Part shown: piece after piece, positions 31,105 to 63,569 of the stretch
Position numbering within the stretch: the stretch's first letter is position 1
How the letters are laid out: every line of letters starts with the position of its first letter
Assembly (NCBI RefSeq): GCF_964355755.1
Contig: NC_092674.1
Span: forward strand, 12,400,001-12,464,000
DNA: 64,000 nucleotides
Reading direction: 5' to 3'
Source: Antedon mediterranea
Lineage: Eukaryota; Animalia; Echinodermata
Made by a program: the position numbers and the translations under genes
Notes under the pieces: generated by a model
Database searches by the model: none
What the model saw: only the letters and a program-made list of their open reading frames with translations
What the model was told of the DNA's origin: nothing

Positions 31105-31389
31105 TATAACGTGGCCGCTAGTGGCTGGAGTAACAATAAAATATCTGTACAAAACGCGTGTTTCTCTCTTTAAACGACAACATGAACTAATTATATAAAT
31201 TATAATGCAGAAAGTTATGGTTTGGCTATTTAGTTATTATTATAATTATTGTGAATCAGACTGTTTAAAACTTAGTGCGACAGACAGTTATTACAAAGTG
31301 CGACATCTCGATTACTACAAAGTAGGCCTATGACGATTATTACAAAGTGCGGCAGTACAAATAACGTGGTTTATAGATAGTAATTATAT

Positions 31390-31700: not shown

Positions 31701-31974
31701 CGAAGTGCGATGTGCTTTTTTTTCCAAGACAGTACCTATCAGGAAACAACCCTTATTTTAATGGCCTTACTTGAGTTTCGGGATCATATTTTTTTTTAAA
31801 TATTATTAAGTTCTTTAGTGAGATCTGGCTGGAAGGTATCCAGGTCCAGGGAGTTAAATGGCCGCGACTTATAAACTATCTTTTGATTGATCTGACTTCC
31901 CAAAGTCAAGATTAACCTTGATGAAGGAGTAGTGCTCTGAACCATGCGATGGGTACAATCGTGCAGTTCTCTAC

Positions 31975-33015: not shown

Positions 33016-33170
33016 TATAAAGTAGGTCTTTTTGATCTATAATAATGACCCGCAATGTTAATTGGTTCATTTAGGTATGTTATTACCGGCACGCCATTTA
33101 AATTAAAAACTCTTTAAAAATCAAACTGAATTATGTAGCACCCCTTATAATTAATGTTTGTAAAACTTAC

Positions 33171-33269
33171 ATTGTCTGGAAGATCCAATTTAGCACCTGC
33201 CTTGAGCAAAATAGTGCAAACATATGTGTGGCCGTGATATGCAGCCAAAAGTAAAGGTGTCGATCCATC
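33171..33269 (-). CDS. Ankyrin-repeat exon (DGSTPLLLAAYHGHTYVCTILLKAGAKLDLPDN)
   Basis: 99 nt, TTTCAG acceptor, GTAAGT donor, phase 0-0. Confidence 0.92.
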
Positions 33270-33829
33270 CTGAAAGATTACAAACATTATGGTATAGTAT
33301 TTTTCACTCTACAACATATTTAATCTTTTACTGAAATCAATTCGGTGTGATCAATTAAAAATAACTTTATGTAAATAAATAATGCCAAATAAGATTTTTC
33401 AGATGATGTATTGTGGCGTATACATCTATTTTGCTTGTATAATATTCTTTTTTTATAGTACTGTACAAAATAAATGTTTCTTAGCTTTGCCTGAAATGTA
33501 AACATTTCCAGTAGTGCTAATGTATCTGAATGTAAATTATGATACAGAGTGGTGTTTGCGTTTAAACAGGCAGTTACGACTGAAAACGTATCCAGGCTCC
33601 AAAAGGTTCAGGTAACACATTTTGACTGCTAACTTCTTACTAGGCCCATTGGTTTCATTTTGCCGTCACGGGGAGGAGATAAATGAATTACCAAATCAAA
33701 TGGATATCTCGATTCATATCCTTTTTTTTGTGTATATATCACTTGTACAAAACAATAACAAAAACACGACACACCTTACCATTCTGTGCTCTAAAGGCAA
33801 ATGGTAAACACTATTACGGAATCTACAAT

Positions 33830-35770
33830 GCTAAAAGTGAGAATACTTTCAATGACAGATTTATAAAACAAAACAGACGTAGACAAAATGTAAGTCTATG
33901 CAAGAAGTAAAAACGTTGAGCATGAGGCTTTTTGATAGTCTTAGTAATAATACTTATTGTTGTGCCATTTAAAATCTCTAGTGATTTATTTACAATGTCA
34001 ATTTCTCAGTGGGTATTTCATATTGTAGGTGATTCACATTTTGTGTTATAATTATTTCGAGTGTTTCACCTGCTGTGATAGAAACAATACTGTAATGAGT
34101 TGAAAATGTAAGCATATTAGTGTATTGGTAAACACATGGTGTACTGCAAACCAAAATAGTGTATTTGTGCACATAATAGGAGGTGACATTTGTAAATGAG
34201 ACCGTTTTATTTGACACGAAAAAGCATGTAAACTCCTAAAAAACGTACGTAATCATATAATGTAGTACATTTTGAATGTTGACATGTTACTTCTAACAGA
34301 GTTCAACTTAGATTTTTCTCGGGTTACTTGGATTTGGTTCTTAAATACGGTGTATTGTTGTATTTATTGTAATGCCATGTGTTTTCTACATTGCGAAATT
34401 ACATAGTTAGGGTACGGACATTTCTCTTAGTATTATAGGGTAACACCGTGGCTTAAACATATATTGTTTATTATAAAACATAGACCTTTGCAAAAACACT
34501 ACTTAGTTTATTAATGAAAAATATATTAATTAAAATATACATTTGAATTAGCTGTACGTGAGTCCAAAACATCTAAATGAATATGTATTTACAAAAAGCT
34601 ACAATTATTGTTTTCGAGAATTGTTGTTTTTTTTAGACCACACAAAGTGGCTGTGTAACTTCACATTAATGATATATTGAAACAATATGTTAATTAGTCA
34701 CCTAATCTTGCCATATACGATGATTTAAAATTCTGAGTTTAATATTATAGTATTACAGTTGAACCTACGTAAGAGGCCGCCCCCCTCCCCCCCTTAACGG
34801 CCGTACTTTCAAAAGCCTGTTTGTTCTTCATCTAATGAGTGGACTTCATGTAAGCAGCCATCTCATGTGAGCGGCCACAGGCAAATTTGTTTACAACACA
34901 TTATATTGTTTGTATGGTAAATTACCTCCCTGTAAGCGGTTACCCAAAACAAAAATCGTATTGACTATTGACAACAAGACCATATACATGGCTGCATTCG
35001 CGCGCACAAATTGTAGTTAGTTTTTACTGACCGACCAACCGACCGACCGACATATTGAGCTGTAGAGTCGCGTTTTGCACGCGACTAAAAATACAATTTT
35101 TATACTAATATTGTGCTTTATATATTAGGTTTATTTCGAAGCGGTTTTAAAAATATTTCTGTGAAGAACATTCCTGTGTTTTTTTTAGATGAGATGAGAA
35201 AACTACACAGATTTTTACCAACCAATTTGTCTGAAAATCATACATAATTCTAAACTATCTGATTATAAATTAAATGGAGAATAAAGAGGCTAGTTGCGTT
35301 CAGAAAGCCGAAAAATATCGTGCTTTTGGCCCTCTATAGGCAGAACCTCCCGTAATCGGCCACTTTTCAATTCCATGAAATAAGGCAATTAATAGTAGTT
35401 GATACCTTAGTGGTTATAACAGCCCAGGGCTAAACTTTAACTCATCAAGCCCAAAGACGTTCATTTTTGTCGCAAATACTGTAGGAGTAAATGTAAGCGT
35501 AAGCAACTGAAGAAAAGATATTTAGGGCTAGCCTAGATGTCACAGGGAAGCGCATTAATTACAATTGTCACGGCTGCTCTCTTTATAAAATAGTGAACCT
35601 GCGAACCCCACCTGCTATGGGCTTGCACTTCACCGTGAGTTATCCTCGTTAACGCACACCCTGTAACTAACATGAAATACACATACTCTATGACCCGAAA
35701 AAATCATAGTGTACTAAATTGTGTCTATTCTGTGTCATACAATATTAAGCGCGAATAACCAATAAGTAAA
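33830..35770. repeat. Intronic block paralogous to 60320-63068
   Basis: Colinear similarity from AAAGTGAGAATACTTTCAATGAC through GCGAATAACCAATA..GTAAAG. Confidence 0.85.
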
Positions 35771-36578
35771 GGTTAATATTATATTGTATTCCGTTTAATC
35801 AGCAAGGCCTACATTTCATTTTCCATGTGTTAATTTTCACTATGATCACACGATTACGAAATCAGCAACAGTTGACCACATACGAATGACAATCGGTTCT
35901 TTTTAGTGGGCTGAATTATTAACATTAATTGACTTAAACGGCCACCAACTGTTATTATTCAGTTTAATAAAACCAAGTCTCACTTGTACAGAGAATATGT
36001 CTTGAAAACTTTTACAGATACAATATCATTTCACTATAAATCTTTGATATCATGTGTATATAAACAACACTTGATGTGTTTACAATTGCCATGTCACGGG
36101 AATACGGTTGAGTTTCATAGGAAACAAAGTTGTAGAGATTATAAGTTTCTGAAATATACTGTAGTGCTGCTGTGTTATCGGAGAAAGTATTTTATAATCT
36201 AATCACAGTATGTATTCAATTATCTCAACACAAATACCAATTGAAATGCCATAGTTTCTGTGATTAGTTCTTTAGTTCTTTTAAATATGTCTACTATAAT
36301 CTTTCCATCTCTTCTGAAACTTGTTTTCAATACAATCAATTGCCTGTTGTAGATACAAACAAGGAAAACGTTTATTCATCATTACTAACAAGTAAGTTAT
36401 CAGGGATAGTTATTTTTTCAGGTTGATGTACTTACATTTCCATCACATAACCCTTACCTTTTATCACGTAACGTATTAAGAGTACACGCCTGTTCATGTG
36501 CGCCATATTATTGCTCATATATTCTTTACCAAAATAATTGTGCAAGCACTGTTAACGTAGTTTACCTAGTTTACCAAT

Positions 36579-37424
36579 AGAGAGAAATGGCGAACCGCGA
36601 TGACGTCACTCAAATTTCACCGAGTGGGTATATATTGTAAACAAACCATTTCGCCACATGTTTTTGTATGGGAAATTCCGATGGGTTGAGTTAAAAAGGA
36701 AGGTAGAAAAGAACGTTTAAAACACACATAATAGCAGTATCTTTTTTTTTTGCAACACCCTTAACAATTTTAATGTTATATGGGCAAATCTTAACATATT
36801 TTATTTTAATTTGGATTGAATTAAGATGCGTTTTTGTTATATACTGTACCCAGCTCTAGGCCCTAGATAGTTGGCCTGTATGCTGTAGTACCTCGGATTA
36901 TCGGTTATTATAATAATAATAATATTGGAAATTCGTTATTGCATACTGTACTACTACTACTACTACTACTACTTTAGCTAGGGTGCTGCTGGCCTCTCCT
37001 AGCTAGGTAGTAAGACTAAATAGAGCATCTCTAGTAGATGTAGGCCTAGCATTAGTTTCAGCTTGACAACTGCCATTTTGTTATGTGGCTAGTGATGCTT
37101 CATGCAGGGAGGGGGGGGGGGGGGCTACCGCCAGTAGATAACACCATTCTATATAATACTATATAGGCATAGTCTAATGTAGACCTACAGATATGAGATA
37201 TTTTTAGGAATATGATTGTGAATGATGGATGACTTTTATACATATTTCATTGTTTTATTGTGTAAGTACACAAATACAACAAGAATTATGAGCGTTACAG
37301 CAACAACATTGGTTAGACGAAACCATGATTCACGTGTATAAACATAGGAAATGTGTCGCCCTCAACGGTTTGTTATGATTTTATACCCACTCGGATTTTA
37401 GACGTCGGTTCGCCATTTCTCTCT
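36579..37424. mobile_element. ISL2EU/PHIS-like MITE (second copy at 42295-43131)
   Basis: AT|AGAGAGAAATGGCGAACCG ... CGGTTCGCCATTTCTCTCT|AT. It is absent from the paralogous site at about 47973. Confidence 0.7.
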
Positions 37425-40400
37425 ATTGGGATTGTATATTTATGTAAAGTAATACTATTAAAACAAGGTCAATACTCGGGAAAATGGATTAGATACTGCA
37501 TGACATTTTTTTCTGTTATTAACCATATTAGGAAGTAAAAATAAAATTTCAATTATTGCTTTATTTTGGGGTTAAAGGTCACCAAATACAGGCCAAAAAT
37601 ACCCTAAAATCTTATTTTAAAAATAAAACTATTAAAATAGTTTAGATTCACTGTGATTCTAGAAAAAATTGAACAGCGAATTTATCAAAACTGTTGTTGT
37701 TGCTCTTTTAAAGGGAAATTTCATGGTTTCTCCCAGTTTACATGTTTACAAGACACTATTAAAATTTACCAAATATAACATTATTAGTGGATTTATATAA
37801 TTTAAGATGTCTTCTTTCTAAACAATATTAAAAAGTTTCGATTGTCACATTTACCATTTTTGGACTTTTGCCACACTTTGAATTGGTTCTGGTCCACTGT
37901 GCCACGGGCCAAGAGCTATTCTTTTATTATTCTAATTTTTTTTAATCGGCAATCATGACCCTTTATAACTTGTTGTTGTATATGATGTGCCAGCGTGTGC
38001 GATATTGGTACATGTTACGTTCTAGGCGTTGTAGTAGTAAACAACCTGATGAAAGTGACATTGGGTAGACTTGTGAATGGTAGTTGTGAATGAATTGCCG
38101 TTTCTTACACAGGGAGCATACCGCCTCTCGTAACTACGGATTTTGGTCCCTGGATGTGTATCGCATGGCCCCCGGATGTTGACGCGTGAGCTTGGCCAAC
38201 TTAACTTCTAAATATAGTTACTGTATAAATGTTTCTTACAAAGACAAGTGCGTCCTATCACTAGTACAGTTAGTAACTTGATTCATATTTTGGTTCCTCT
38301 AACTTTGATACAGCACAGATATCGACGCGTGAACAGCAATGAAAATGAGTTCGTTAATTAGTCGTTTTACTGTAATAATATATATATATATATTTGTTAT
38401 ACTAGAAAATTAGTTTGATGAAATGTATTCTACAAAATTAGAAGGCCTAATAATTGTTTTCCCTCAGAAATGAAGTGGGGGGAGGTCACGTGTCTGTTTA
38501 TGAGTGATAATCAATAAGGCATTTAATTAAAATGCAGAGTGTCTTAAAATTAGGCCTACTTGACTGAATCAGAGTAGACCTACTACACAGTTGCATTTAA
38601 ATGAGTCAATAATTAGCATGATAATTTATGTAATTAATACACAGTGAAAGAGCTTATTTTAGTATCCTATAGTAATACATTTTTCTATATAATTTAAAGA
38701 GAAGATGGAATTTAAAATCAGTTACAAAAGCCGACGATAAGAGAGAATTACATGTTTCAAAAAACACCCACTTGTTATTAAAAAAAAAACATTGCACATC
38801 GGCGAGGCTCGATGTCATGCGTGACTGACGAAAACTTGCATGTTTTGTTGTACTGTAGGCCTATCAGTTAATCAGCATACAATGAAACGTGTATCTTGTA
38901 CCCCATCATGGTACAAAGTGTCATACAAATCGTACATTTAATAATTCGAACAGCCTAGAACGTGAACATAATTCGTAGCGTACGTATACACAGTACACGA
39001 CTACGCGTCGGTAAACTTCGCCAGGGAAGTAAGCCTAACTATAATATACGCATTTTGATTCCTGGATGGAACATGATGTATATATTACGCGTAAACCGTG
39101 TATTTCACGATGCCACTAGATCGGTCACTTAATAATAATAATTACTTTAATTTTCCAATTCATCATGCGTTTGTCGTTACTATGAACTTTAATTGTACTG
39201 ATTGGAATAATTAATCAGTAAAATAATGCTTGCCTTCTGATCAATGTTAGTTACATTGAAAACCTCATCCCAAGGATGCGATGTAAATCAACAGTTGAAT
39301 AGCAAGAGAAGACATGGGTTGGCTAATTCACTTGCAATTGTTTGTCTTTTTTTTAACAATATTTTGATGACGAAGTAACAGTTACTGTATAGTCAGAGTG
39401 GCAATAGTTATACGAATTATTGTTTCAGATTTGTAATAATTACGTCAAGTATAGCCTCTTCTCTAGTAGCCATGTCAGCCTCTTGACTTAGCTATTGGGC
39501 ATGGAAAAGTGCACTGATATTTGCACGTTAAAATCGCCTATGACACCAACGCAAGCATAAAACAACTATATTCTACAAATAAACATGATCAGAAATAGAC
39601 AATGTAGTCGCTTAGTATACCAATTTCATCATGTAACTGCTGTGTTCAGTCTTCTGTTATTTACGTATATTATGCAGCAACACCTTCCCCGTGATGATGT
39701 TTAACGATGACTATGTAAAATTAATGTTAAACATCAGAGATGTTATCTCTAGGGTTGCTAGTTATAATGTAGTAAAAACAAATAATACTAGAATATAAAA
39801 AGTACATAATGAAAAAAGAAAACCTGGATAACCCAATTTCGTTAACTATACTAACTTTAGATAAATTGGTGGTCACATATTGAAGTAATTTCGGATTTGA
39901 CAAAAGTATGAGTATGTATGAGGTTAATTAGGCCTATTTCAGAAAACAGTTTAGGGGATTTTTTTTTCTCAGCCCCACTCTGCAGTCACGATCTCTTTTC
40001 GCGAATTCTAATTTCACATAAACGGGCAATGAAATCATTATTAAAAACATGTAAGCTTATACGGTAGGTATATATTTATATTATTTATTTATTTATTTTT
40101 GTTTATCCTTTTCGTGGATACTATTTAAAAATACAAACAGAAGGTTTGTATTTTTTCCGATTGTTTCGCTGTATACAGTAAATAAGTTGCTGATGAATTT
40201 TATGATGATTTTGAAGAATAAAATGAATAATTAAAAATATGAGGCGTATAAAAATCATTTTGCATGATTGATTTCTGTAATATAAATTCTGTAAAAGCGT
40301 TGTTTCCAGTTTTAATTGTTTAGGCCGACAGATCGAGTATGTTGTTACACAGGCCATGATTGTTATTATAAAAATCTGATATGAAAATAACTATTGTTCT

Positions 40401-40606
40401 TATGTTGTACCATGTGGAGTTGAAGTTTAACAGAACAATATAAATAGTTCTAATGGTTCTGCTAATTTAGTATTATTTATATAATGTAGTGACAGTACTT
40501 TAGGTATGTTATTACCGGTTCGCCCTTAAATTTGAAAATTAAACCATTTATTTTAATCACACTGAACTATATAGCACCCTTATTAATAATGTTATGTAAA
40601 ACTTAC

Positions 40607-40705
40607 ATTTGTTGTAAGATCCAAATTAGCACCTGCCTTGAGCAAAATAGTGCAAATATCTGTTTGGCCATTACTTGCAGCATAATGCAAAGGTGTCCAT
40701 CCGTC
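40607..40705 (-). CDS. Ankyrin-repeat exon (DGWTPLHYAASNGQTDICTILLKAGANLDLTTN)
   Basis: 99 nt, TTTCAG acceptor, GTAAGT donor, phase 0-0. Confidence 0.92.
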
Positions 40706-40951
40706 CTGAAATATTACAAACATTATGTTATAGTATTTTTCACTTCACATCAAACTATCTAATATTGTACTAAAATCAATTAGATGTGATCATGTGTATA
40801 TACAAATTCAATTAAATAATTAAATTTATATAATAATTTAAAGTATGTGTAATCAGTGCTACTAAGCGCCTTTGATGATTACATTGTTTACTTAATTATG
40901 GCAACACAAACACAATATAAGTATATGAAAGTTACTTGTTGAAACTTAAAA

Positions 40952-41260
40952 TTCAGCACCCGTCTATTTACAGGAACTAATTCAGAAGTATAACCCTGGT
41001 CGCCAGGGACTCGGATCTACACAAGATATTACTCGTCTTGTTGTTCCTAAAACTAATAGACTATTTAGTGATAAATCATTTTCTGTCATTGGACCTAAGT
41101 TATGGAACAATTTACCTATTAATGAGCGTATTGCTCCAAGTGTACAGTGTTTTAAAAAATTGTTAAAGAGTTTTCTTTTCCCTAAGGAATAATTTAGATA
41201 TGTACTGCTCTAATTAATATACAACTTTTGGGAAAAGCGCTTTATAAATCTCTATAGTAT
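40952..41260 (+). mobile_element. L2 LINE 3' fragment (duplicated at about 46621-46929)
   Basis: Encodes APVYLQELI..LVVPKT..DKSFSVIGPKLWNNLP..FKKLLKSFLF and ends in AAAGCGCTTTATAAAT. Empty paralogous sites lie at about 52095 and 55005. Confidence 0.8.
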
Positions 41261-41534
41261 AAAATAAATTGCCATAAATAGATTGTTAAATGATACTGGT
41301 ATGTACTTCTTGTATCTAATTTATAAACAAAAAATATTATTTTAATTATAAATTTGTAATATTAAACCATTGGACAGTGTGTGTGTGAAATATGTAATGT
41401 ACTTCCTCTATCTAATTTATAAAAAAAAAATAAAATATTTTAATTAGATTTGTCTTTATTCATTAGGCATAATGTGTATGTACCAGTTCCAGAAACGAAT
41501 GAATCACGATTATTAATAAAAAGTATGAAAGCAC

Positions 41535-41919
41535 ACATAAAACGAACAATTCGTCGCTGCAGAACTGAATCTTCTTTTCAATCATATATCCCACGTGTTA
41601 CCAGAATTTGGAATAACTTATCCAGTGAAATCAGCAACTTAAATATTTATGTTAGGTGTTTTAAAACCAAATTACTTAATTATCTCAATATTTATTTTTT
41701 AAATAATTTTGATATTGAAAAAGTGTGTAGTTGGTCGCTTTCTTGTAGATGCTTTAATATTGTAGAACGTAATTTATTTATTTTTCTTATATGTTTCTGT
41801 TCTGGTTTGACCAACTAGCATAGTTGTAGCACCTGTTTGGTCTTTCCATGCCTCCTTTTATAATTGTTTTGTCTTCTTTGTTATGTATATGGCAGAAATT
41901 GAATAAATAAATAAATAAA
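41535..41919 (+). mobile_element. CR1-type LINE 3' fragment (duplicated at about 47204-47588)
   Basis: Encodes RCRTESSFQSYIPRVTRIWNNL..FKTKL..CSWSLSCRC and ends in a (TAAA)n tail. Confidence 0.75.
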
Positions 41920-44900
41920 CACAGTATGTATTCAATTATCTCAACACAAATACCAATTGAAATGCCATGGTTTCTGTGATTAGTTCTTTAGTTCTTTTAA
42001 ATATGTCTACTATAATCTTTCCATCTCTTCTGAAAACTGTTTTCAATACAATCAATTGCCTGTTGTAGATACAAACAAGGAAAACGTTTATTCATCATTA
42101 CTAACAATTAAGTTATCAGGGATAGTTATTTTTTCAGGTTGATGTACTTACATTTCCATCACATAACCCTTACCTTTTATCACGTAACGTATTAAGAGTA
42201 CACGCCTGTTCATGTGCGCCATATTATTGCTCATATATTCTTTACCAAAATAATTGTGCAAGCACTGTTAACGTAGTTTACCTAGTTTACCAATAGAGAG
42301 AAATGGCGAACCGCGATGACGTCACTCAAATTTCACCGAGTGGGTATATATTGTAAACAAACCATTTCGCCACATGTTTTTGTATGGGAAATTCCGATGG
42401 GTTGAGTTAAAAAGGAAGGTAGAAAAGAACGTTTAAAACACACATAATAGCAGTATCTTTTTTTTTTTGCAACACCCTTAACAATTTTAATGTTATATGG
42501 GCAAATCTTAACATATTTTATTTTAATTTGGATTGAATTAAGATGCGTTTTTGTTATATACTGTACCCAGCTCTAGGCCCTAGATAGTTGGCCTGTATGC
42601 TGTAGTACCTCGGATTATCGGTTATTATAATAATAATAATATTGGAAATTCGTTATTGCATACTGTACTACTACTACTACTACTTTAGCTAGGGTGCTGC
42701 TGGCCTCTCCTAGCTAGGTAGTAAGACTAAATAGAGCACCTCTAGTAGATGTAGGCCTAGCATTAGTTTCAGCTTGACAACTGCCATTTTGTTATGTGGC
42801 TAGTGATGCTTCATGCAGGGGGGGGGGGGGGCTACCGCCAGTAGATAACACCATTCTATATAATACTATATAGGCATAGTCTAATGTAGACCTACAGATA
42901 TGAGATATTTTTAGGAATATGATTGTGAATGATGGATGACTTTTATACATATTTCATTGTTTTATTGTGTAAGTACACAAATACAACAAGAATTATGAGC
43001 GTTACAGCAACAACATTGGTTAGACGAAACCATGATTCACGTGTATAAACATAGGAAATGTGTCGCCCTCAACGGTTTGTTATGATTTTATACCCACTCG
43101 GATTTTAGACGTCGGTTCGCCATTTCTCTCTATTGGGATTGTATATTTATGTAAAGTAATACTATTAAAACAAGGTCAATACTCGGGAAAATGGATTAGA
43201 TACTGCATGACATTTTTTTCTATTATTAACCATATTAGGAAGTAAAAATAAAATTTCAATTATTGCTTTATTTTGGGGTTAAAGGGCACCAAATACAGGC
43301 CAAAAATACCCTAAAATCTTATTTTAAAAATAAAACTATTAAAATAGTTTAGATTCACTGTGATTCTAGAAAAAATTGAACAGCGAATTTATCAAAACTG
43401 TTGTTGTTGCTCTTTTAAAGGGAAATTTCATGGTTTCTCCCAGTTTACATGTTTACAAGACACTATTAAAATTTACCAAATATAACATTATTAGTGGATT
43501 TATATAATTTAAGATGTCTTCTTTCTAAACAATATTAAAAAGTTTCGATTGTCACATTTACCATTTTTGGACTTTTGGCACACTTTGAATTGGTTCTGGT
43601 CCACTGTGCCACGGGCCAAGAGCTATTCTTTTATTATTCTAATTTTTTTTAATCGGCAATCATGACCCTTTATAACTTGTTGTTGTATATGATGTGCCAG
43701 CGTGTGCGATATTGGTACATGTTACGTTCTAGGCGTTGTAGTAGTAAACAACCTGATGAAAGTGACATTGGGTAGACTTGTGAATGGTAGTTGTGAATGA
43801 ATTGCCGTTTCTTACACAGGGAGCATACCGCCTCTCGTAACTACGGATTTTGGTCCCTGGATGTGTATCGCATGGCCCCCGGATGTTGACGCGTGAGCTT
43901 GGCCAACTTAACTTCTAAATATAGTTACTGTATAAATGTTTCTTACAAAGACAAGTGCGTCCTATCACTAGTACAGTTAGTAACTTGATTCATATTTTGG
44001 TTCCTCTAACTTTGATACAGCACAGATATCGACGCGTGAACAGCAATGAAAATGAGTTCGTTAATTAGTCGTTTTACTGTAATAATATATATATATATAT
44101 ATTTGTTATACTAGAAAATTAGTTTGATGAAATGTATTCTACAAAATTAGAAGGCCTAATAATTGTTTTCCCTCAGAAATGAAGTGGGGGGAGGTCACGT
44201 GTCTGTTTATGAGTGATAATCAATAAGGCATTTAATTAAAATGCAGAGTGTCTTAAAATTAGGCCTACTTGACTGAATCAGAGTAGACCTACTACACAGT
44301 TGCATTTAAATGAGTCAATAATTAGCATGATAATTTATGTAATTAATACACAGTGAAAGAGCTTATTTTAGTATCCTATAGTAATACATTTTTCTATATA
44401 ATTTAAAGAGAAGATGGAATTTAAAATCAGTTACAAAAGCCGACGATAAGAGAGAATTACATGTTTCAAAAAACACCCACTTGTTATTAAAAAAAAAAAC
44501 ATTGCACATCGGCGAGGCTCGATGTCATGTGTGACTGACGAAAACTTGCATGTTTTGTTGTACTGTAGGCCTATCAGTTAGGCATACAATGAAACGTGTA
44601 TCTTGTACCCCATCATGGTACAAAGTGTCATACAAATCGTACATTTAATAATTCGAACAGCCTAGAACGTGAACATAATTCGTAGCGTACGTATACACAG
44701 TACACGACTACGCGTCGGTTTGATTCCTGGATGGAACATGATGTATATATTACGCGTAAACCGTGTATTTCACGATGCCACTAGATCGGTCACTTAATAA
44801 TAATAATTACTTTAATTTTCCAATTCATCATGCGTTTGTCGTTACTATGAACTTTAATTGTACTGATTGGAATATTTATTCAGTAAAATAATGCTTGCCT

Positions 44901-47588
44901 TCTGATCAATGTTAGTTACATTGAAAACCTCATCCCAAGGATGCGATGTAAATCAACAGTTGAATAGCAAGAGGAGACATGGGTTGGCTAATTCACTTGC
45001 AATTGTTTGTCTTTTTTTTAACAATATTTTGATGACGAAGTAACAGTTACTGTATAGTCAGAGTGGCAATAGTTATACGAATTATTGTTTCAGATTTGTA
45101 ATAATTACGTCAAGTATAGCCTCTTCTCTAGTAGCCATGTCAACCTCTTGACTTAGCTATTGGGCATGGAAAAGTGCACTGATATTTGCACGTTAAAATC
45201 GCCTATGACACCAACGCAAGCATAAAACAACTATATTCTACAAATAAACATGATCAGAAATAGACAATGTAGTCGCTTAGTATATATACCAATTTCATCA
45301 TGTAACTGCTGTGTTCAGTCTTCTGTTATTTACGTACATTATGCAGCAACACCTTCCCCGTGATGATGTTTAACGATGACTATGTAAAATTAATGTTAAA
45401 CATCAGAGATGTTATCTCTAGGGTTGCTAGTTATAATGTAGTAAAAACAAATAATACTAGAATATAAAAAGTACATAATGAAAAAAGAAAACCTGGATAA
45501 CCCAATTTCGTTAACTATACTAACTGTAGATAAATTGGTGGTCACATATTGAAGTAATTTCGGATTTGACAAAAGTATGAGTATGTATGAGGTTAATTAG
45601 GCCTATTTCAGAAAACAGTTTAGGGGATTTTTTTTTCTCAGCCCCACTCTGCAGTCACGATCTCTTTTCGCGAATTCTAATTTCACATAAACGGGCAATG
45701 AAATCATTATTAAAAACATGTAAGCTTATACGGTAGGTATATATTTATATTATTTATTTATTTATTTTTGTTTATCCTTTTCGTGGATACTATTTAAAAA
45801 TACAAACAGAAGGTTTGTATTTTTTCCGATTGTTTCGCTGTATACAGTAAATAAGTTGCTGATGAATTTTATGATGATTTTGAAGAATAAAATGAATAAT
45901 TAAAAATATGAGGCGTATAAAAATCATTTTGCAGGATTGATTTCTGTAATATAAATTCTGTAAAAGCGTTGTTTCCAGTTTTAATTGTTTAGGCCGACAG
46001 ATCGAGTATGTTGTTACACAGGCCATGATTGTTATTATAAAAATCTGATATGAAAATAACTATTGTTCTTATGTTGTACCATGTGGAGTTGAAGTTTAAC
46101 AGAACAATATAAATAGTTCTAATGGTTCTGCTAATTTAGTATTATTTATATAATGTAGTGACAGTACTTTAGGTATGTTATTACCGGTTCGCCCTTAAAT
46201 TTGAAAATTAAACCATTTATTTTAATCACACTGAACTATATAGCACCCTTATTAATAATGTTATGTAAAACTTACATTTGTTGTAAGATCCAAATTAGCA
46301 CCTGCCTTGAGCAAAATAGTGCAAATATCTGTTTGGCCATTACTTGCAGCATAATGCAAAGGTGTCCATCCGTCCTGAAATATTACAAACATTATGTTAT
46401 AGTATTTTTCACTTCACATCAAACTATCTAATATTGTACTAAAATCAATTAGATGTGATCATGTGTATATACAAATTCAATTAAATAATTAAATTTATAT
46501 AATAATTTAAAGTATGTGTAATCAGTGCTACTAAGCGCCTTTGATGATTACATTGTTTACTTAATTATGGCAACACAAACACAATATAAGTATATGAAAG
46601 TTACTTGTTGAAACTTAAAATTCAGCACCCGTCTATTTACAGGAACTAATTCAGAAGTATAACCCTGGTCGCCAGGGACTCGGATCTACACAAGATATTA
46701 CTCGTCTTGTTGTTCCTAAAACTAATAGACTATTTAGTGATAAATCATTTTCTGTCATTGGACCTAAGTTATGGAACAATTTACCTATTAATGAGCGTAT
46801 TGCTCCAAGTGTACAGTGTTTTAAAAAATTGTTAAAGAGTTTTCTTTTCCCTAAGGAATAATTTAGATATGTACTGCTCTAATTAATATACAACTTTTGG
46901 GAAAAGCGCTTTATAAATCTCTATAGTATAAAATAAATTGCCATAAATAGATTGTTAAATGATACTGGTATGTACTTCTTGTATCTAATTTATAAACAAA
47001 AAATATTATTTTAATTATAAATTTGTAATATTAAACCATTGGACAGTGTGTGTGTGAAATATGTAATGTACTTCCTCTATCTAATTTATAAAAAAAAAAT
47101 AAAATATTTTAATTAGATTTGTCTTTATTCATTAGGCATAATGTGTATGTACCAGTTCCAGAAACGAATGAATCACGATTATTAATAAAAAGTATGAAAG
47201 CACACATAAAACGAACAATTCGTCGCTGCAGAACTGAATCTTCTTTTCAATCATATATCCCACGTGTTACCAGAATTTGGAATAACTTATCCAGTGAAAT
47301 CAGCAACTTAAATATTTATGTTAGGTGTTTTAAAACCAAATTACTTAATTATCTCAATATTTATTTTTTAAATAATTTTGATATTGAAAAAGTGTGTAGT
47401 TGGTCGCTTTCTTGTAGATGCTTTAATATTGTAGAACGTAATTCATTTATTTTTCTTATATGTTTCTGTTCTGGTTTGACCAACTAGCATAGTTGTAGCA
47501 CCTGTTTGGTCTTTCCATGCCTCCTTTTATAATTGTTTTGTCTTCTTTGTTATGTATATGGCAGAAATTGAATAAATAAATAAATAAA
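41920..47588. repeat. Tandem duplication unit 2 (5669 bp, contains one ankyrin exon)
   Basis: Begins CACAGTATGTATTCAATTATC, as do 36204 and 47589. It differs from unit 1 by scattered SNPs, microsatellite lengths and an indel of about 40 bp. Confidence 0.95.
46276..46374 (-). CDS. Ankyrin-repeat exon identical to 40607-40705
   Basis: 99 nt with the same sequence and splice sites. Confidence 0.9.
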
Positions 47589-50500
47589 CACAGTATGTAT
47601 TCAATTATCTCAACACAAATACCAATTGAAATGCCATGGTTTCTGTGATTAGTTCTTTAGTTCTTTTAAATATGTCTACTATAATCTTTCCATCTCTTCT
47701 GAAAACTGTTTTCAATACAATCAATTGTTTGTAGATACAAACAAGGAGAACGCTTATTCATCATTACTAACACGTAAGTTATCAATGATAGTTATTTCTT
47801 CAGGTTGATGTACTTACATTTCCATCACATAACCCTTACCTTCTATCACGTAAAGTATTAAGAGTACACACCTGTTCATGTGCGCCATATTATTGCTCAT
47901 ATATTCTTTACTAAAAATAATTTTGCAAGCACGTTAAATGTATTGATTCAAGATCAACATTACTTTGTTTATCAATATTGGGGTTGTATATTCATATGAA
48001 GTAATAATATTAACAAGGTCAACACTCGGTAAACCAAATTTTTTGGAAAAAAGCAATGGATTTGATACTGCATGACATTGTTTTTCTGTTATTAACCATA
48101 ATAGAAAGTAAAAATAAATGTCAACTATTGCTATATTTTGGGGTTAAAGATCAACAAATACAGGTCAAAATACCAAAAATCATATTTTTAAAATAAAACC
48201 ATTATAATGGTTTAGATTCACGGTGATTCTAGAAACAGCAGAGAATTTATCAAAACTGTTGTTTTTGCTCTTTTAAATTGAAATTTCATGGTTTCTCCCA
48301 GTTTCCATGGTTACAAGACACTATTAAAATTTACCAAACATAACATTATTAGTGGACAAACAATATTAAAAAATTTGGATTGACAAATTTACCATTTTTG
48401 GACTTTTGGCACACTTTGAATTGATTCTGTCCCACTGTGCCATGGGCCAAGAGCTATTCCTTTATTATTCTATTTTTTTAAATCGGTAATCGTGACCCTT
48501 TATAAGTAATGTTGTATATGATGTGCCAGCGTGCTACGTTCTAGACATTGGAATAGTAAACAACTAATAGTAAAAAAAAGTTGAAACGAATTGTAAACGT
48601 CTGTCCAGCATTAGAGATAATCTTAAAAATGTCTCTTCTGGAAAGAGGTAATAGATGCATGGAGTAATTTTATTTCTATTCATTATCCAAAGTTTGTTGA
48701 CGAGCTATTACGAATGCAAATTTGGAATAATGAAGTAATAAGAATAGGCAACGAATGTATAAGATATGGAAATTGGGGAAAAGCAGGTATTCTGTTTGTT
48801 AATGATTTGTTTAACAGCAATGGGCAATTTATGAATAAAAAAGAAGTCGAAGATACCTATGGAATTAAGATAAATTATAAAAAATTAATAGGAGTAAGAA
48901 GGCTTCTTATGGAAAAATTTAACAATTTAATTATATGTGAAATTTTAAAAAACAGTTTTGCCAGATATTCCATTTCATATAAAAAGTACTCTTTCAACAA
49001 AGAAAGGGATGTCGTATTTTTTATGATGTTTTAAATAACTCAATGTTTACATCATGGAAAGCACAAAAGAAATGGGCAGAGAATACATTTGTATTCAATA
49101 ACGAACAATTGAAAACAATCTACCTAGATCCACATACGTGTACAATGAATATTGTTTTAATATATTTTCAATATAAAATTGTAAACAGAATAATTGCAAC
49201 AAATGAACAATTATTTAAAATGAATATAAAAGAAACTTCAATGTGCTCATTTAGAGATGGTAAAATCGAAACCATTTAGCATTTGTTCTGTAATTGTCCA
49301 ATAGTAAAAAGGATATGGAACCTTTTCCAGGAAAAAATTTCAGAAAAAAACTGGAGTGCAATTTATTTTTAGTAAAGAGAGCATAATTTTCGGATACCAA
49401 GATGCGCATCAGTTTTTTAATTTAAAAGCCATTAATGCAATTATTCTAATTGTAAAATCATTTATTTATAAATGTAAACTAGTTAAATGTAAGTCAAATA
49501 TCAAAATGGTTATGAACGAGTTAAAAAGGTTTTATGAAACGGAAAAAAGTATTTATCATCAGAATTTTCAGGACAGTATTTTAAATAGAAAATGGATAAA
49601 ATTAGAAGCATTTATAAATCAAATATGAAATTGTTAGAGATTAGAATAATTTTTATGAACCTTTATTTAATTTGTTTGTTGTTTTTGTTTGATTTTTATT
49701 TTTTATTTGATTATGTTTTTCCTTTGTAATGTATTATTATGATGAAAAAAATAAATAAATAAAAAAATAAAAAAATAGTAAACAACCAAATAAAAGTGAC
49801 ATTGGGTAGACTTGTAAATGGTAGTTTCTTACAAAGGGAGCATACCGCCTCTCGAAGCTACGTATTTTGGTACCTGTATGTGTATAGCATGGCCCCCGGT
49901 TATCGACGCGTGAGCTGGGCCAACTTCTAAATATATTCACTCTATAAATATTTCTTACAGAGGGACACCTCCAGATTAAGTGCGTCCTATCACTAGTAAG
50001 TAACTTGATTCAGATTTCTAACTACATGACAGATATTGACGCGTAAACCACAAAGAAAATGAGTTTGTCAATTAGTAGACGTTTTACTGTAATATTAAAT
50101 ATATTTGTTACTAGAAATTAGTTTGATAAAATATATTCTACAAAATCAGTAGGCCTAATCGTTTTCCCCTAATAAATTAAGGGGGTGGGGGGAGGGACAC
50201 GTGTTTGTTTATGAGTGAGAATCAAAAAGGCATTTAGTTAAAATGCAGACCGTCTTAAATTACTTGACATGTTCCGATAAATATATTCGCATCATCAGAA
50301 TTGTAATCAAAGCATAGGATACTTGTATACGTACAAAGTTGCGTTTAAATGAGTCAATCATAGCATGAGAATAGATTTATCGAAACATGTCACCTAATTT
50401 TAAGACGGCCCACATTTTCATTAAATGCCTTATGATATTATTGATTATCAATCGTAATTAGGTGGTATTATACATGATGTGCCTGTTTATGTACAATGAA

Positions 50501-50900
50501 AGAGCTTATTTTAGTATCCTATATTAATATATTTTCTATATAAGAGAATATGTTATTTCAAATCAGGTACAAAAGCCGACGATCCAAGCGAATTACATGT
50601 TTAAAAAAAATCGGAAAACACTCATTTGTTATTTTCAAAACACATTGAAAATCGGCGCGGTCCGATGGCATTCGTGACTGGCGGAAAAACGCAACAAAAA
50701 TGAAAAACGAAAATGGCATGTTGTGTTTTCTGTAGGGCTACAGTAATTAGTGTTTCAGATACCACCATTGACAGTAGCAGAATTGGGTGTTTATTTCAAG
50801 CTCACATAAACGGGCAAAGAAATCCTCGTGAAACATTATTTAAGCTTATTCTCTATAGTATATTTAAGTTATCTACTTATTCATTTATTTATATATTGTT
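47589..50900. repeat. Older, diverged third paralog of the duplicated intronic unit
   Basis: Colinear with about 36204-38870 but has many substitutions. It lacks the MITE and carries an L1/Tx1 insertion. Confidence 0.85.
48565..49773 (+). mobile_element. 5'-truncated L1/Tx1-clade LINE
   Basis: Encodes IWNNEVIRIG..W..AGILFVNDL, FQYKIVNRIIATN and CSF....ETI.HLFC.C. It has a poly(A)-rich tail and a 13-bp TSD AATAGTAAACAAC (48552-48564, 49774-49786). Confidence 0.85.
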
Positions 50901-51119
50901 TTCTCTTTTTACTTGGTTAGATGAAACATGTTACCGAGAAACAACAAACATTCTAGTTGAAATTGTTTATGTATACCCACAGATTGCACTATTTTCTGTA
51001 TACTTAATTAGGTACTCTTTTCGTACATGTGTTGCTGTTGGAAATAGATAAATATTTCACTTCAATTATTTTCCAAAAATAGTGGTACACAACAATGAAA
51101 GAAAATGTGAAAACTATTA

Positions 51120-54100
51120 TTACTATTGGTTTCATTTTACCGTTACTTAGAGGGGATATGTTTTTTTTTAATGTTTTATAAAATCAAATGAAAATCTTGA
51201 TTCATATCAATTTATTGTATCATTTTGCATAAAATACAATCTTGCTCTACAGCACAACACAATGCAAAAACAGAAAACTGAAAAAACCACGACATATCAT
51301 TCTCTAACATTCAGTGCCCTAAAGACATATGGAAACAATGATTACGGAATCTATTACGAGAGGTGATGGACCTTTTTTTTAACGTCAAATGAGTGCATTG
51401 GATAGGTTAGGTCTTGCAAAATTGAATGTGTTTCCTCAGTAAAGTATCTTATAAAAAGAATCGAAATGAGATTTGCTTAATTATAACTACTAAAGTCCTA
51501 TACGTGAAGCATAACTAATAATACGTTGCAGCTAATTCTTACATGTGGTACAGGTAAACTATAAAATAAAGAATAATGAGAATACTTTCAATGACAGATT
51601 TATAAAAAAAAGACGTAGGCCTATGTCTAATGGGAGGGTTAACTCGAAAGATGTGAGTCTATGTAACAGTAAAGCCTATTTGATACTCTCAGAGCCATAG
51701 TAATTATTTCATTGACATGCATACTTGTCTTGGACAAAATCTGAAAAGAGGCATAGAAATCAGATAGGGGAAGTGGAATGTTACAAGTAGTCAATATAGT
51801 CATTATATCCTAATAATTCCTTCTGATCACTCTTAAGCGTGGTTGACACTGAATTGTTTGCATAGACTATACCCCACTTCAAGTATTATTAAATTATAAT
51901 AATTATGACCTACAGTATCCACGTTATATCACCATATTAAATAATTTGTCATTGTTTAAAGAAAACATTAATCATGATGTTTTGAAAGTGTAATAAGTGC
52001 TACTAAGCGCCTTTGATGTTTACATTGGTAGTTAATTACTGTAATACAAACTTATCAATATAAGTATATGCAAGTTACTTTTGGGTAACTTAAAATTAAT
52101 TGTCATAAACATTTTTTTTAATGATACTGGTATGTACTTTTGTATCTAATTTATCCAAAACAATATTATTTTAATTATAAAATTTTAACATTCAATCATT
52201 GGAGATTTTGTGTGATGTACTTCCTAAATAAAAAAAAATAAGTATGAAAGCAAACATAACAACAGACAATGATTACTAGTTTCCCGAATAATTGTTGAAT
52301 TAAACTAACATTTTGAACTCAACCATCACCGTGATGATATCGGGATATCCGTGTTAACGCACACAGTGTAACAAACATCTTGAAATACACTCATACTCTA
52401 TAAACTGAAAAAAATATATAGTGCTGAATTATGTCTATTATGTGTCATACAGTACTAAATGCGAATAACCAATAAAGTAGTGATTTTTTTCCCTTGGGGA
52501 AAAAACAATGCATTTAATTTGATATTTTTCTTGATAGTATAATATTCAATTGTTTGGTGTATGTCACTGTTATGAGTCCAGGTAAGCACAACTGTGGCAT
52601 CTATTGTCTATAAACGTCTATAAATTTCAAAACCTTTATTGTCTGAATTCGTTTTGAATGAAGTTGTAGGCCTTCAAATTCAAATGTCAAATGAATACTA
52701 ATATTGGTGTCCTTTCTACATGATCTCAAGCTCTTCCGCTAGTCACCTAATCGACCAAAAATATTGGTATGCATACAGAGAGTCATGTCAGGAATAAACA
52801 ATGTAAGTCGCTTATTACGAAGATGGACCTATTTCATTATGTAACTGCTGTTGTCACTATGATGTTATTTACGTACATAATTTGTATAATTAAAGTTTAT
52901 CTATTGCGTAATCAGTTATGTTTTCTGATTGAACTTAACTGATTTTAAATCAATGGGAGCTCATCAGTTATATACATTATAATCATTTCAGATTTGACAA
53001 AATAATTAAAACTGATTACTTTCCGATTATCAGAAAGCTTAAATATGTTAATATTTACATAAACAATGGTACGAAGACGTAAACTTACTGTGAGCTTCTG
53101 CATGTAAATTAAGAGGCTAATTATGCATTTTCAAATAACAGTTCGGAATAGTTGGATTTTGTTGCTTATGTTCGCGAAATTGTCTTTTATTTCAAACTCA
53201 CAAAAACGGGAAATGAAAATTTCGTTATTAAAAACATTATTTAAAGCTTATTCAGTATAGTTAAATTATTCAATTTATTCATTTATTTATATGTGTTGTT
53301 CCTTTTTTTTCTTTTTACTTGGTTAGATAAAACATGTTAGTGATAAAATGCCAATATTCTAGTTAACATTCTTCATTTAATGATAATCCCACAAATTGCA
53401 CTATTTGTGTATACTTAAATAGGTAGCTCTTTTCGTATATTTGTTGCTGTTAGGAAAATAAATATTTCACTTCAAAAACTTTCCAAAAATAGTGGTACAC
53501 AACAATGACAACAAAAAAGAGGGGAAAAAACTCTATTTTACGTTCTTGTTATATAAATATTATGAACGACTGAATTATATAGCACATAATATTTATGTGG
53601 GTAACACTTACTTTTGCCTGAAGATCCAATTTAGCACCTTCCTTGAGCAAAATAGTGCAAACATCTGTGTGGCCGTTTTGTGCAGCCACATGTAAAGGTG
53701 ACGCTCCATCCTGAAATATTACAAACATTATGTTATAGTATTTTCTATCTCTAAACAAAGTAGTAAAATATTGTCCTGAAATCAAAACGATGTGATCAAT
53801 TAAAAATGACGGTATAGTTTTAAATAATGCTACATAGTTAAATTAAATAAAGAGTATTAGGCCTAACCCTTTTTTTAAAGATAATGTATTGTATACATAT
53901 ACATTTGTATTTCTTGTAGACCTATAACATTTGTTTATAGTGCTTTATAAATTTATAAAACAAATAAGTGGTTTTTTTTTGGCCTGAAAAGTAAAACTTC
54001 ATCCGGTAGTGCTAACTAGTCTGAGTGTAAACTGGCAGTTACAGCTAAAATATATCTAGCCTCCAAATTCTGTTCAGGTAACACATTTTGACTGCTAAAT

Positions 54101-56360
54101 TGTTACTATTGGTTTCAATTTACCGTTACCCGGAGGGTATATTTTTTTTTTAATGTTTTATAACATCAAATGAAAATCTTGATTCATATCCATTTATTGT
54201 ATCATTTAGCATAAAATACATTGTTGCTCTACAGCACAATACAATGCAAAAACAGATAACTGAAAAAACCACGACATATCATTCTCTAACATTCAGTGCC
54301 TTAAAGGCATATGGTAACAATGATTACGGATCTATTACGAGAGCTGATGTACCATTTCTTTGAACGTCAAAATAGTGCATTGGATTGGTTGGGTCTTGCA
54401 AAATTGAATGTGTTTCCTCAGTAAAGTCTCTTATAAAAATGAATCAAAATGAGATTTGCTTAATTATAAGTACTGTAGTCCTATACGTGAAGTATAACTA
54501 ATAATACGTTCCAGTCAATTCTTACATGTGGTACAGGTAAACTATAAATAAAGAATAATGAGAATACTTTCAATGACAGATTTATCTGAAAAGAGGCCTA
54601 GAAATCAGATAGTGGAAGTGGAATGTTACAGGTAGTCAATATAGCCATTATATCCTATTATTCCCTTATGATCACTCTTAAGCCTGGTTGACACATAATT
54701 GTTTGCATAGACTATACCCCACTTCAAGTATTATTATAAATATATTATATAATATATTATAAATAATAATAAATAATATAATTATAAATAATATATTATA
54801 AATATTATAATAATTATGACCTATCCACGTTCTATCACCATATTAAATAAGTTGTCATTGTTTAAAGAAAACATTAATCATGATGTTTTTAAAGTGTAAT
54901 AAGTGCTACTAAGCGCCTTTGATGTTTACATTGGTAGTTAATTACTGCAATACAAATACCTACTTATCAATATAAGTATATGCAAGTTACTTTTTGGTAA
55001 CTTAAAATTAATTGTCATAAACAGGTTGTTAAATGATACTGGTATGTACTTTTGTTTCTAATTTATCCAAAACAATATTATTTAAATTATAAACTTTTAA
55101 TATTAAATCATTGGACAGTTTGTGTGATATGTGTAATGTACTTCCTAATTAAAAAAAAAAGTATGAAAGCAAACATAACAACAGACAATGATTACTAGTT
55201 TCCCGAATAATTGTTGAATTAAACTAAAATTTGAACTCAACCATCACCGTGATGATATCGGGATATCCGCGTTAACGCACACAGTGTAACAAACATCTTG
55301 AAATACACTCATACTCTATAAACTGAAAACATGTATAGTGCTGAATTATGTCTATTATGTGTCATATGGTACTGTACTAAGTGCGAATAACCAATAAAGT
55401 AGTGGTTTTTTTTTTCGTAAAGAAAACAATTCATTTAATTTGATATTTTTCTTGATAGTATAGGCCTAATATTCAATTGTTTGGTGTATATCACTGTTAT
55501 AAGGTAAGCACAACTGTGACATCTATTGTCTATAAACGTCTATAAATTTCAAGTCCTTTATTGTCTGACTTCGTTTTGAATGAAGTTATAGGCCTTCAAA
55601 TTCAAATGTCAAATGAATACTAATATTGGTATCCTTTCTACATGATCTCAAGCTCTTCCGCTAGTCACCTAATCCACCACAAATATTGGTATGCATACAG
55701 AGAGTCATGTCAGGAATAAACAATGTAAGTCGCTTATTACGAAGATGGACCTATTTCATTATGTAACTGCTGTTGTCACTATGATGTTATTACGTACATA
55801 ATTTGTATAATTAATTTTTATCTATTTTGTAATCAGTTATGTTTTCTGATTGAACTTAACTGATTGTCAGAAACCTTAATGTGTTAATATTTACATAAAC
55901 AATGGTACGAAGACGTAAACTTACTGTGAGCTTCTGCATTTAATATATACTATTAAGAGGCTAATTATGCCTATTTCAAATAACAGTTCGGAATAGTTGG
56001 ATTTTGTTGCTTATGTTCGAAATTGTCTTTTATTTCAAACTCACAAAAACGGGCAATGAAAATTTCGTTATTAAAAACATTATTTAAAGCTTATTCAGTA
56101 TAGTTAAATTATTCAATTATTCATTTATTTATATGTGTTGTTCTATTTTTTTTCTTTTTACTTCGTTAGATAAAACATGTTAGTGATAAAATGCTAATAT
56201 TCTAGTTAACATTCTTCATTTAATGATATTCCCACAAATTGCACTGTTTATGTATACTTAAATAGGACGGTAGCTCTTTTTGTATATTTGTTGCTGTTAG
56301 GATAATAACTATTTCACTTCAAAAACTTTCAAAAAATAGTGTTACACAACAATGACAACG
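51120..56360. repeat. Second tandem duplication (about 51120-53510 vs 54105-56360) bracketing an ankyrin exon
   Basis: Colinear blocks run from TACTATTGGTTTCA..TTACCGTTAC to AAAAATAGTG.TACACAACAATGACAAC. Confidence 0.9.
53612..53710 (-). CDS. Ankyrin-repeat exon (DGASPLHVAAQNGHTDVCTILLKEGAKLDLQAK)
   Basis: 99 nt, TTTCAG acceptor, GTAAGT donor, phase 0-0. It is visible inside ORF 53549-53785. Confidence 0.92.
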
Positions 56361-63470: not shown

Positions 63471-63569
63471 TTCCCCTTTTTGGGAAAAAGATTGTGTCAA
63501 TCTTTCCAAAAATTTAACATTTAAAACCATTTTACTATAAACTATCTACAAATAACACCTCTATAATAA

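Follow-up and report, generated by a model that had tools for sequence, protein, structure and literature searches.

The stretch of DNA analysed here (the window) comprises 64,000 nucleotides of the Antedon mediterranea genome (RefSeq assembly GCF_964355755.1, contig NC_092674.1, positions 12,400,001 to 12,464,000 of the forward strand). It carries on its minus strand five ankyrin exons of 99 nt in phase 0, which the sequence predicts to run on in frame into an exon encoding a ZU5 domain. The initial annotation of this DNA had stated that three of these exons diverge almost only by amino-acid changes, mostly at binding-face positions, in a pattern resembling designed ankyrin repeat proteins (DARPins), and had read this as diversifying selection on ligand specificity. 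Our results lead us to lean, with some reserve, towards another explanation, namely that the exons encode old, repeat-type-specific, predicted binding surfaces whose rate of evolution is close to neutral while their scaffold is under constraint, and that these crinoid-like exons arose through tandem duplication of exon-plus-intron units. The exons are given below with their nearest repeats in P0008, an annotated Antedon mediterranea protein; all positions are those of the window.

ANK1 exon, 53612 to 53710, minus strand: 99 nt, phase 0-0, DGASPLHVAAQNGHTDVCTILLKEGAKLDLQAK; Pfam Ank at 34 bits (cut-off 21.1) for the enclosing open reading frame (ORF).
ANK2' exon, 46276 to 46374, minus strand: 99 nt, same sequence as ANK2.
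ANK2 exon, 40607 to 40705, minus strand: 99 nt, DGWTPLHYAASNGQTDICTILLKAGANLDLTTN; nearest to repeat 2 of P0008 (30/33 residues).
ANK3 exon, 33171 to 33269, minus strand: 99 nt, DGSTPLLLAAYHGHTYVCTILLKAGAKLDLPDN; nearest to repeat 3 of P0008 (26/33).
ANK4 exon, 23059 to 23157, minus strand: 99 nt, an older divergent repeat, DGNTPLLCAADMGHVRTCTYLIKVGADVNHLNH; 28/33 to repeat 4 of P0008.

ANK1, ANK2 and ANK3 each encode one 33-residue ankyrin repeat beginning DG.TPL and are preceded by TTTCAG. All five exons have an AG acceptor and a GTAAGT donor, and none of the five contains a stop codon, a frameshift or a lost splice site. Only ANK2 and ANK2' are identical, while the distinct repeats share 22 of 33 residues (67%), and ANK4 is so far from ANK1-3 that synonymous divergence is saturated (dN 0.55-0.72). 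Comparison of ANK1 with ANK3 yields 14 nucleotide differences, with 11 amino-acid-changing codons and no purely synonymous one. ANK2 and ANK3 differ by 18 nucleotides, in 11 amino-acid-changing and 2 purely synonymous codons. These counts and their coordinates are exactly those of the initial annotation, which did not include the third pair, ANK1 and ANK2, with 21 nucleotide differences, 11 amino-acid-changing codons and 3 purely synonymous ones. The residues that it had singled out (A/W/S at position 3, HV/HY/LL at 7-8, QN/SN/YH at 11-12 and QAK/TTN/PDN at 31-33) are correct too, but cover only 8 of the 14 residues that vary among the three distinct exons (3, 4, 7, 8, 11, 12, 14, 16, 17, 24, 27, 31, 32 and 33). 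The 19-mer coding for CTILLK (exon positions 18-23) is indeed nucleotide-invariant, occurring as four exact copies in the window against 0.01 expected, the fourth of which lies in ANK2'. A scan of metagenome contigs for this 19-mer returned six loci, all of them chance matches in unrelated sequence (41-56% GC) and none an ankyrin exon.

Estimates of selection were made with the Nei-Gojobori method on the three distinct 99-nt sequences, in which about 76 of the 99 sites are nonsynonymous and about 23 per pair synonymous. For ANK1-ANK2 we obtained a dN of 0.249 and a dS of 0.251 (dN/dS 0.99, one-sided Fisher P=0.65), for ANK2-ANK3 a dN of 0.221 and a dS of 0.169 (dN/dS 1.31, P=0.55), and for ANK1-ANK3 a dN of 0.187 and a dS of 0.067 (dN/dS 2.8, P=0.28). 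As a null model, the observed numbers of hits were placed at random on the exon, with kappa set to 1, 2 or 4 and stops excluded. This gave a mean of 2.6-4.2 purely synonymous codons, and the probability of finding as few as observed, or fewer, was 0.38-0.59 for ANK1-ANK2 and 0.25-0.43 for ANK2-ANK3; for ANK1-ANK3 it was 0.03-0.06, a nominal value uncorrected for the three pairs. The predominance of amino-acid changes in these exons is hence what an overall omega (dN/dS) near 1 would yield, and the near-absence of synonymous changes in an exon of 99 nt is what unselected mutation is expected to produce. Variable sites are spread over the three codon positions as 9/7/10. Along the exon, the 26 variable sites are concentrated in 16 codons (P=0.011), several of which changed at two or three positions (3, 8, 11, 31 and 32), and the longest invariant run measures 21 nt (P=0.018).

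We then set the divergence of the exons against that of the intron around them, a comparison that the initial annotation had proposed, using an alignment of the ANK1-3 units. Pairwise, 15-18 of 55-58 positions differ in the distal intron (-95 to -37; 27-31%), 2-4 of 36 in the proximal upstream flank (-36 to -1; 6-11%), 14-21 of 99 in the exon (14-21%) and 5-8 of 43-45 downstream of it (+1 to +47; 11-19%). The exon therefore diverges no faster than the least constrained flank, and what stands out is the low dS and the very similar proximal flanks, rather than a high dN. The neutral yardstick is itself ambiguous, as distal and proximal intron differ threefold. Diversifying selection is thus not established by these data: dN/dS lies between 0.99 and 2.8 with P values of 0.28-0.65, the exons lie below the distal intron, and their differences are old (see below). 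Three short sequences cannot show positive selection as opposed to relaxed constraint. The proximal flank has the following form.

Conserved intron flank upstream of ANK3, 33270 to 33305, minus strand: 36 nt with an in-frame ATG, ATGTTTGTAAT[AC]TTTCAG.

Equivalent flanks lie at 40706-40741, 46375-46410 and 53711-53746 (minus strand), with 2-4 differences in 36 between copies. Their translation, MFV[IM]FQ, is the annotated N-terminus of the two closest annotated proteins, P0008 and P0009, whose database models may start artificially inside the intron, unless the flank serves as a start in first exons.

Sequencing data consisted of eight runs from three studies, none of them listed as RNA, and contigs of four runs were aligned on 32990-33480; the summed contig depths that follow are not copy numbers and serve as hints only. 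In run X1 a single 757-nt contig spans the whole stretch at a depth of 76 with 2 differences, and elsewhere many unitigs of 50-90 nt pile up. Their summed depth reaches 3,707-16,625 over the exon core (33177-33244) and 2,933-7,670 over the upstream intron flank (33262-33312), with 574 over codons 3-8 (33245-33261) and 76-583 in the more distal intron beyond the conserved flanks. Runs X5 and X7, from a second organism, gave a depth profile of the same shape, so that in the DNA runs of two organisms exon core and flank stand at about 40-200 times the depth of the spanning contig. These depths hint at an exon type present in the order of a hundred genomic copies or more, alike in scaffold and proximal flanks and diverse in the hairpin and helix-1 part. 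In the comparison with the second organism at ANK3, short paralogue contigs swamp the stretch, and the unique flank at 32990-33057 is without cover in X5 and X7. An A>T difference at 33250, seen at 88% likeness, was dropped as a candidate allele; it disappears at 90% and was treated as the product of cross-aligned paralogues.

The contrast between flanks and distal intron brings in an explanation by concerted evolution, in which gene conversion homogenises helix 2 and the proximal splice flanks, and the binding-face codons keep an older divergence as selection rejects converted variants. The 2-4 differences in 36 positions of the flank, against 15-18 of 55-58 in the distal intron, are what it predicts, as is a dS (0.07-0.25) below distal-intron divergence; the depth of core and flank in two organisms is a hint in the same direction, and the same regime is described for fungal NLR repeats in the available portion of PMC4986451. 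However, conservation of the proximal flank is explicable as splice signals, the low dS is weakly measured on about 23 synonymous sites per pair, three sequences with no outgroup give no topology in which a mosaic or a conversion tract could be read, and the internal identity of 67% falls short of the 85% required for the fungal class. As the principal account we consider it unlikely. Concerted evolution of scaffold and flanks could nevertheless explain the low dS and the alike flanks, and is compatible both with near-neutral binding surfaces and with positive selection.

To locate the changes on the repeat we used the structure model of P0008, a paralogue, and the fold was tested there only. 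A stack of helix-turn-helix units and hairpins is present in this model, where exon positions 5-12 of each of the four repeats form helix 1 and positions 15-23 helix 2 (block-mean pLDDT 64-91 over residues 1-150), in agreement with the earlier placement of CTILLK in helix 2. Mapped on it, the variable residues fall in the hairpin (3, 4 and 31-33) and in helix 1 (7, 8, 11 and 12), and otherwise in the inter-helix turn (14), the first turn of helix 2 (16, 17) and the loop that follows (24, 27). In the DARPin library register, library positions correspond to exon positions 33, 1, 3, 11, 12 and 31; a partial check of this register is given by DARPin chain 6mol_A, the repeats of which differ from one another at exon positions 3, 8, 11, 12, 15 and 24. 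Five of the six library-equivalent positions vary in the window, against 9 of the 27 others (one-sided Fisher P=0.037), and at the nucleotide level 12 of 18 sites vary in these codons against 14 of 81 in the remaining ones.

Library positions were, according to the available portion of PMC4308713, chosen as the least conserved in natural ankyrin repeats. As a generic control we took 122 unrelated ankyrin proteins with 779 domain hits, discarded 709 partial hits and kept the 70 near-full-length repeats. Their mean entropy is 2.54 bits at the positions that vary in the window and 1.56 bits at those that do not (Mann-Whitney P=0.010), which indicates that much of the pattern is the ordinary conservation profile of ankyrin repeats. 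Taken as a set, the generically variable positions show 17 of 42 sites varying, the same as the distal intron. The statement that changes lie mostly at the binding face thus holds: they are clustered, they favour the hairpin and helix 1, and they include five of six library positions, but the same positions are variable in ankyrin repeats generally and 9 of the 14 variable residues lie outside the library set. The predicted binding-face residues likely evolve at about the neutral rate or somewhat above it, under relaxed constraint.

The age of the differences is revealed by the paralogues. A protein search with the ankyrin exons retained 7 proteins from 17 candidates, the closest being Antedon mediterranea P0008 (85%) and P0009 (84%). 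A search with residues 1-175 of P0008 yielded 3,170 proteins at E<=1e-10 out of 5,390 candidates; among the best 120 of these 3,170, the only family members were P0008 and P0009, the remainder being generic ankyrin proteins. Both proteins have the repeat types of the window in the same order. ANK1 is nearest to repeat 1 of P0009 (27/33), and ANK2 falls in a repeat-2 clade of three sequences with support of 96/96. Indeed, every window repeat matches the same-position repeat of a paralogue best (26-30/33), compared with 22/33 among ANK1-3, and the residues that set the exons apart (W3 with TTN; QAK; PDN) are common to the same-position repeats of the two paralogous genes. The differences therefore predate the gene duplications and have been retained, which speaks against diversification still being under way among the exons here. 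On sequence grounds, the window gene is a paralogue of the annotated proteins found, and not identical to any of them. By Pfam, P0008 combines ANK (106.6 bits over four stretches) with a Roc match just below the cut-off, P0009 has ANK and Death, and in P0002 the matches to COR-A and ZU5 pass the cut-off and those to Roc and DED fall short of it. Judged by these domain sets, the ankyrin cassette is a module in a family whose members join death-fold, ROCO-type and ZU5 domains in different combinations.

The origin of the exons can be read from self-comparison of the window, which shows nested duplications in tandem.

Two tandem 5.7-kb units, 36200 to 47937 (units 36200-41916 and 41916-47630): 99% identity, each with one ANK2 exon; next to them an older third unit begins, which has no exon.
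Three tandem units of about 2.9 kb, 50790 to 56359: 92-93% identical, colinear with part of the 5.7-kb unit, with an exon (ANK1) in the middle copy only.

ANK2 and ANK2' sit within a span of 1,509 nt that is identical in both 5.7-kb units, and the ANK1, ANK2 and ANK3 units have in common a block of about 240-300 nt around the exon, with 80-82% identity. These nested duplications indicate that the exons were made by duplication of exon-plus-intron units. Spacing between exons is 5.7-7.4 kb. When four exon units were compared with the window by sensitive blastn, just the five known exons and no relic exon came up, and no further ankyrin exon was found in the window at 53711-64000. About 1.9 kb of the intron upstream of ANK3 (33885-35771) recurs at 60390-63068 with 82-91% identity, some 7 kb upstream of ANK1 and with no adjacent exon; this copy may be what remains of a further duplicated unit.

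An explanation by unused pseudo-exons, remnants of segmental duplication that drift neutrally, would account for a dN/dS of about 1 and for the even distribution of variable sites over codon positions; one duplicated unit has already lost its exon, and no transcript of the window locus was obtained. We hold it to be improbable. In all five exons the frame is open and both the AG acceptor and the GTAAGT donor are intact, their changes spare scaffold positions (P=0.010) and cluster (P=0.011), and the order of repeat types is that of the annotated P0008. In run X8, taken only tentatively to be RNA, depth over the exon core exceeds that over the upstream flank about 44-fold, compared with 2.2-fold in the DNA run X1, and several contigs depart from the window sequence within eight bases of the predicted exon end. 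These contigs continue in frame into a new repeat start (D-G-W-S-P-L), into R-N followed by D-G, as at the junction of repeats 1 and 2 of P0008, or into another coding-like segment, which suggests that members of the family are transcribed and spliced at the predicted donor. The X8 contigs are paralogue sequences that say nothing direct about the window locus, and among the 15 joints listed of 432 for contigs on 20720-40710 none was a splice joint between exons.

The same contigs bear on whether the exons could be mutually exclusive alternatives, one per transcript, that vary the binding surface. Their equal length, their symmetric phase and the conserved block upstream of each are features that such exons would show, but the P0008 model has three repeat types in series, X8 contigs join the end of an ankyrin exon to the start of a different one, and the window exons are 5.7-7.4 kb apart. 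This arrangement seems to us very improbable.

Several results run counter to near-neutral evolution of the binding surfaces. Plain relaxed constraint predicts at most the intron level of variation, so that any excess over intron at the binding face is a point against it. The 12 of 18 varying sites in library-position codons exceed all flanking intron (37 of 134, P=0.002) and, weakly, the distal intron (23 of 55, P=0.10); for the ANK-N5C set described in the available portion of PMC4308713 (positions 2, 3, 5, 10, 13 and 33, assuming the same register), 13 of 18 sites vary (P=0.03 against the distal intron and 0.0003 against all flanks). Positions 15, 19, 20, 23 and 30, variable in ankyrin repeats generally (2.8-3.8 bits), are invariant here, which makes the variation of the window repeats more face-specific, towards the hairpin and helix 1, than the generic ankyrin pattern. 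When same-type repeats are compared between genes, they differ at position 11 in 5 of 8 comparisons, at 7, 8 and 12 in 4 each, and at 3 and 14 in 3 each. To these we add the lack of synonymous codons between ANK1 and ANK3. On the side of the locus itself, its exons are predictions from sequence, no transcript of it having been obtained, and the 99% identical 5.7-kb duplicate could reflect either a very recent exon gain or a haplotype that the assembler placed in tandem, that is, an assembly artefact.

Most of these results are what one would expect of positive diversifying selection on ligand specificity, which would replace amino acids on the concave face of repeats duplicated recently and thereby yield nature's equivalent of a DARPin library. 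Besides five of six library positions varying (P=0.037) and the excess over flanks, this explanation can call on the multiply hit codons (3, 8, 11, 31 and 32), on a pooled dN/dS above 1, on the invariance of generically variable helix-2 positions together with the recurrence of paralogue differences at the same positions, and, as a hint only, on the dip in X1 depth at codons 3-8 (574) between the flank and helix 2 (up to 16,625). It also has precedents in the ankyrin (ANK) repeats of fungal NLRs (PMC4986451) and in the leucine-rich repeat (LRR) exons of Ectocarpus ROCO genes (PMC3341825), as far as the available portions of these papers go. Against it stand the absence of any significant result among the pairwise tests on just three distinct sequences, a dN (0.19-0.25) not above the distal-intron p-distance (0.27-0.31), the retention of repeat-defining residues across paralogous genes, and the fact that the varying positions are the least conserved in any ankyrin family. 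We regard it as possible, although less probable than evolution at about the neutral rate. A wider form, which we find doubtful, would see in these exons part of a crinoid germline repertoire, with about a hundred copies of one ankyrin-exon type spread by exon-plus-intron duplication, scaffold and flanks homogenised by conversion, a positively selected concave face, and wiring to Roc-COR, Death, DED and ZU5 modules.

Under the explanation that we favour, old repeat-specific surfaces on a constrained scaffold, the ankyrin cassette would serve for protein binding in a modular family that also has death-fold and ROCO-type domains. Duplication of a unit would add a new repeat in frame, because each unit keeps its own splice sites. 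Purifying selection would hold helix 2 and the splice flanks constant, possibly aided by gene conversion among the many genomic copies, and residues of the beta-turn and of helix 1 would be free or repeat-specific.

Downstream of ANK4 the predicted gene continues through three exons.

Capping or linker exon, 20792 to 20894, minus strand: 103 nt, ends in phase 1, YGKSVIDLYNENACEKYDDELRAGQKAEIIEILK; tblastn match to residues 138-173 of P0008 (86%).
ZU5 exon, 19250 to 19782, minus strand: 533 nt, entered in phase 1, which fits the frame of the capping exon; Pfam ZU5 E=7.8e-18.
Next in-frame exon after ZU5, 18656 to 18793, minus strand: 138 nt, phase 0-0; tblastn matches to P0001, P0004 and P0006.

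The first of these resembles a C-terminal capping repeat, as alignments of P0008 with DARPins reach residues 150-151 of P0008, and the part of P0008 homologous to it forms two helices in the structure model, at moderate to low confidence. The ZU5 exon has 58-70% identity to six Antedon mediterranea proteins, and 90% for one short piece, all six ZU5 matches being from that species. Beyond the exon at 18656-18793, a single chance-level domain match (E=3.8) was obtained in 1-18,600, a stretch with relics of long interspersed nuclear elements (LINEs), and neither a second ZU5 or death domain nor a Roc-COR module was found in the window; a second ZU5, a UPA and a death domain may be located beyond its limits. 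Relics of LINE-type reverse transcriptase and endonuclease fill 11-18 kb; broken LINE-type ORFs occur downstream of the ZU5 exons on both strands (969-1406, 11581-12075, 13848-14642, 15196-16284 and 17032-17844), with matches to RVT_1 (up to E=1e-28), Exo_endo_phos and Exo_endo_phos_2. An inverted repeat of 975 nt with 98% identity (7728-8690 and 9519-10491), which has internal tandem repeats of about 70-140 nt (8161-8453 and 9766-10058), looks like a foldback-type element. Within the intron between ANK4 and ANK3, the segments 27390-28056 and 31392-32058 look like very high-copy repeats, their summed contig depth in run X1 being 360,000-425,000 against tens to hundreds nearby.

As the evidence stands, the locus illustrates neatly how repeats multiply when exons are duplicated in tandem. 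Should the binding-face codons prove to be positively selected, the family would be a candidate recognition system of echinoderms that uses ankyrin repeats and not LRRs. Its mechanism of growth would be legible in the genome, each phase-0 exon travelling with its own splice sites, and it would have parallels in fungi and brown algae. Among the papers listed by literature searches (10 of 57 and 15 of 120), none describes this crinoid ankyrin family in its title or in the opening of its abstract, and the comparisons below are with systems described elsewhere.

The order of domains is that of ankyrin-1/2/3, in which ANK repeats are followed by ZU5, and among solved structures the repeats match ankyrin-1 and ankyrin-2 best. 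In canonical ankyrins, 24 repeats precede ZU5-ZU5-UPA-death, whereas 4-5 repeats and a cap lie between 20792 and 53710 of the 64-kb window. The binding part can also be compared with two families from outside the animals. Fungal NLR-like proteins, as described in the available portion of PMC4986451, have ankyrin and tetratricopeptide repeats (TPR) that are highly conserved internally, polymorphic in number and positively selected at sites of the concave face. The window gene and its paralogues are like them in having ankyrin repeats with a constant scaffold and variable inner-helix and beta-hairpin sites, in their modular signalling and death-related domains, and in the swapping of domain partners between paralogues. 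Unlike the fungal class, defined in that portion by at least 85% identity between repeats over at least 100 residues, the distinct window repeats reach 22/33 only, and they are split one per exon, which the fungal repeats are not. Positive selection and repeat-number polymorphism are both reported there for the fungal genes; the 99% identical 5.7-kb duplicate is compatible with the latter, but may also be an artefact of assembly.

With the ROCO genes of the brown alga Ectocarpus, the available portion of PMC3341825 reveals a similar gene structure, each repeat being a single phase-0 exon of constant length and exon-plus-intron units being duplicated. ROCO-type partners are present in the paralogues here as well (COR-A in P0002, and Roc below the Pfam cut-off in P0002 and P0008). 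The algal repeats described in that portion are however LRR (72 nt) or TPR and not ANK, and the algal introns hold inactivated and antisense relic exons, none of which we found in the window. Furthermore, the window gene shows ZU5 and not Roc-COR. If selection were confirmed, the locus would add an animal example to the kind represented by fungal NLR and brown-algal ROCO genes, rather than constitute a new kind. Finally, the likeness to DARPin libraries lies in natural variation at five of six equivalent positions, and the difference in the further nine variable residues (4, 7, 8, 14, 16, 17, 24, 27 and 32), which the window repeats change outside the library set.

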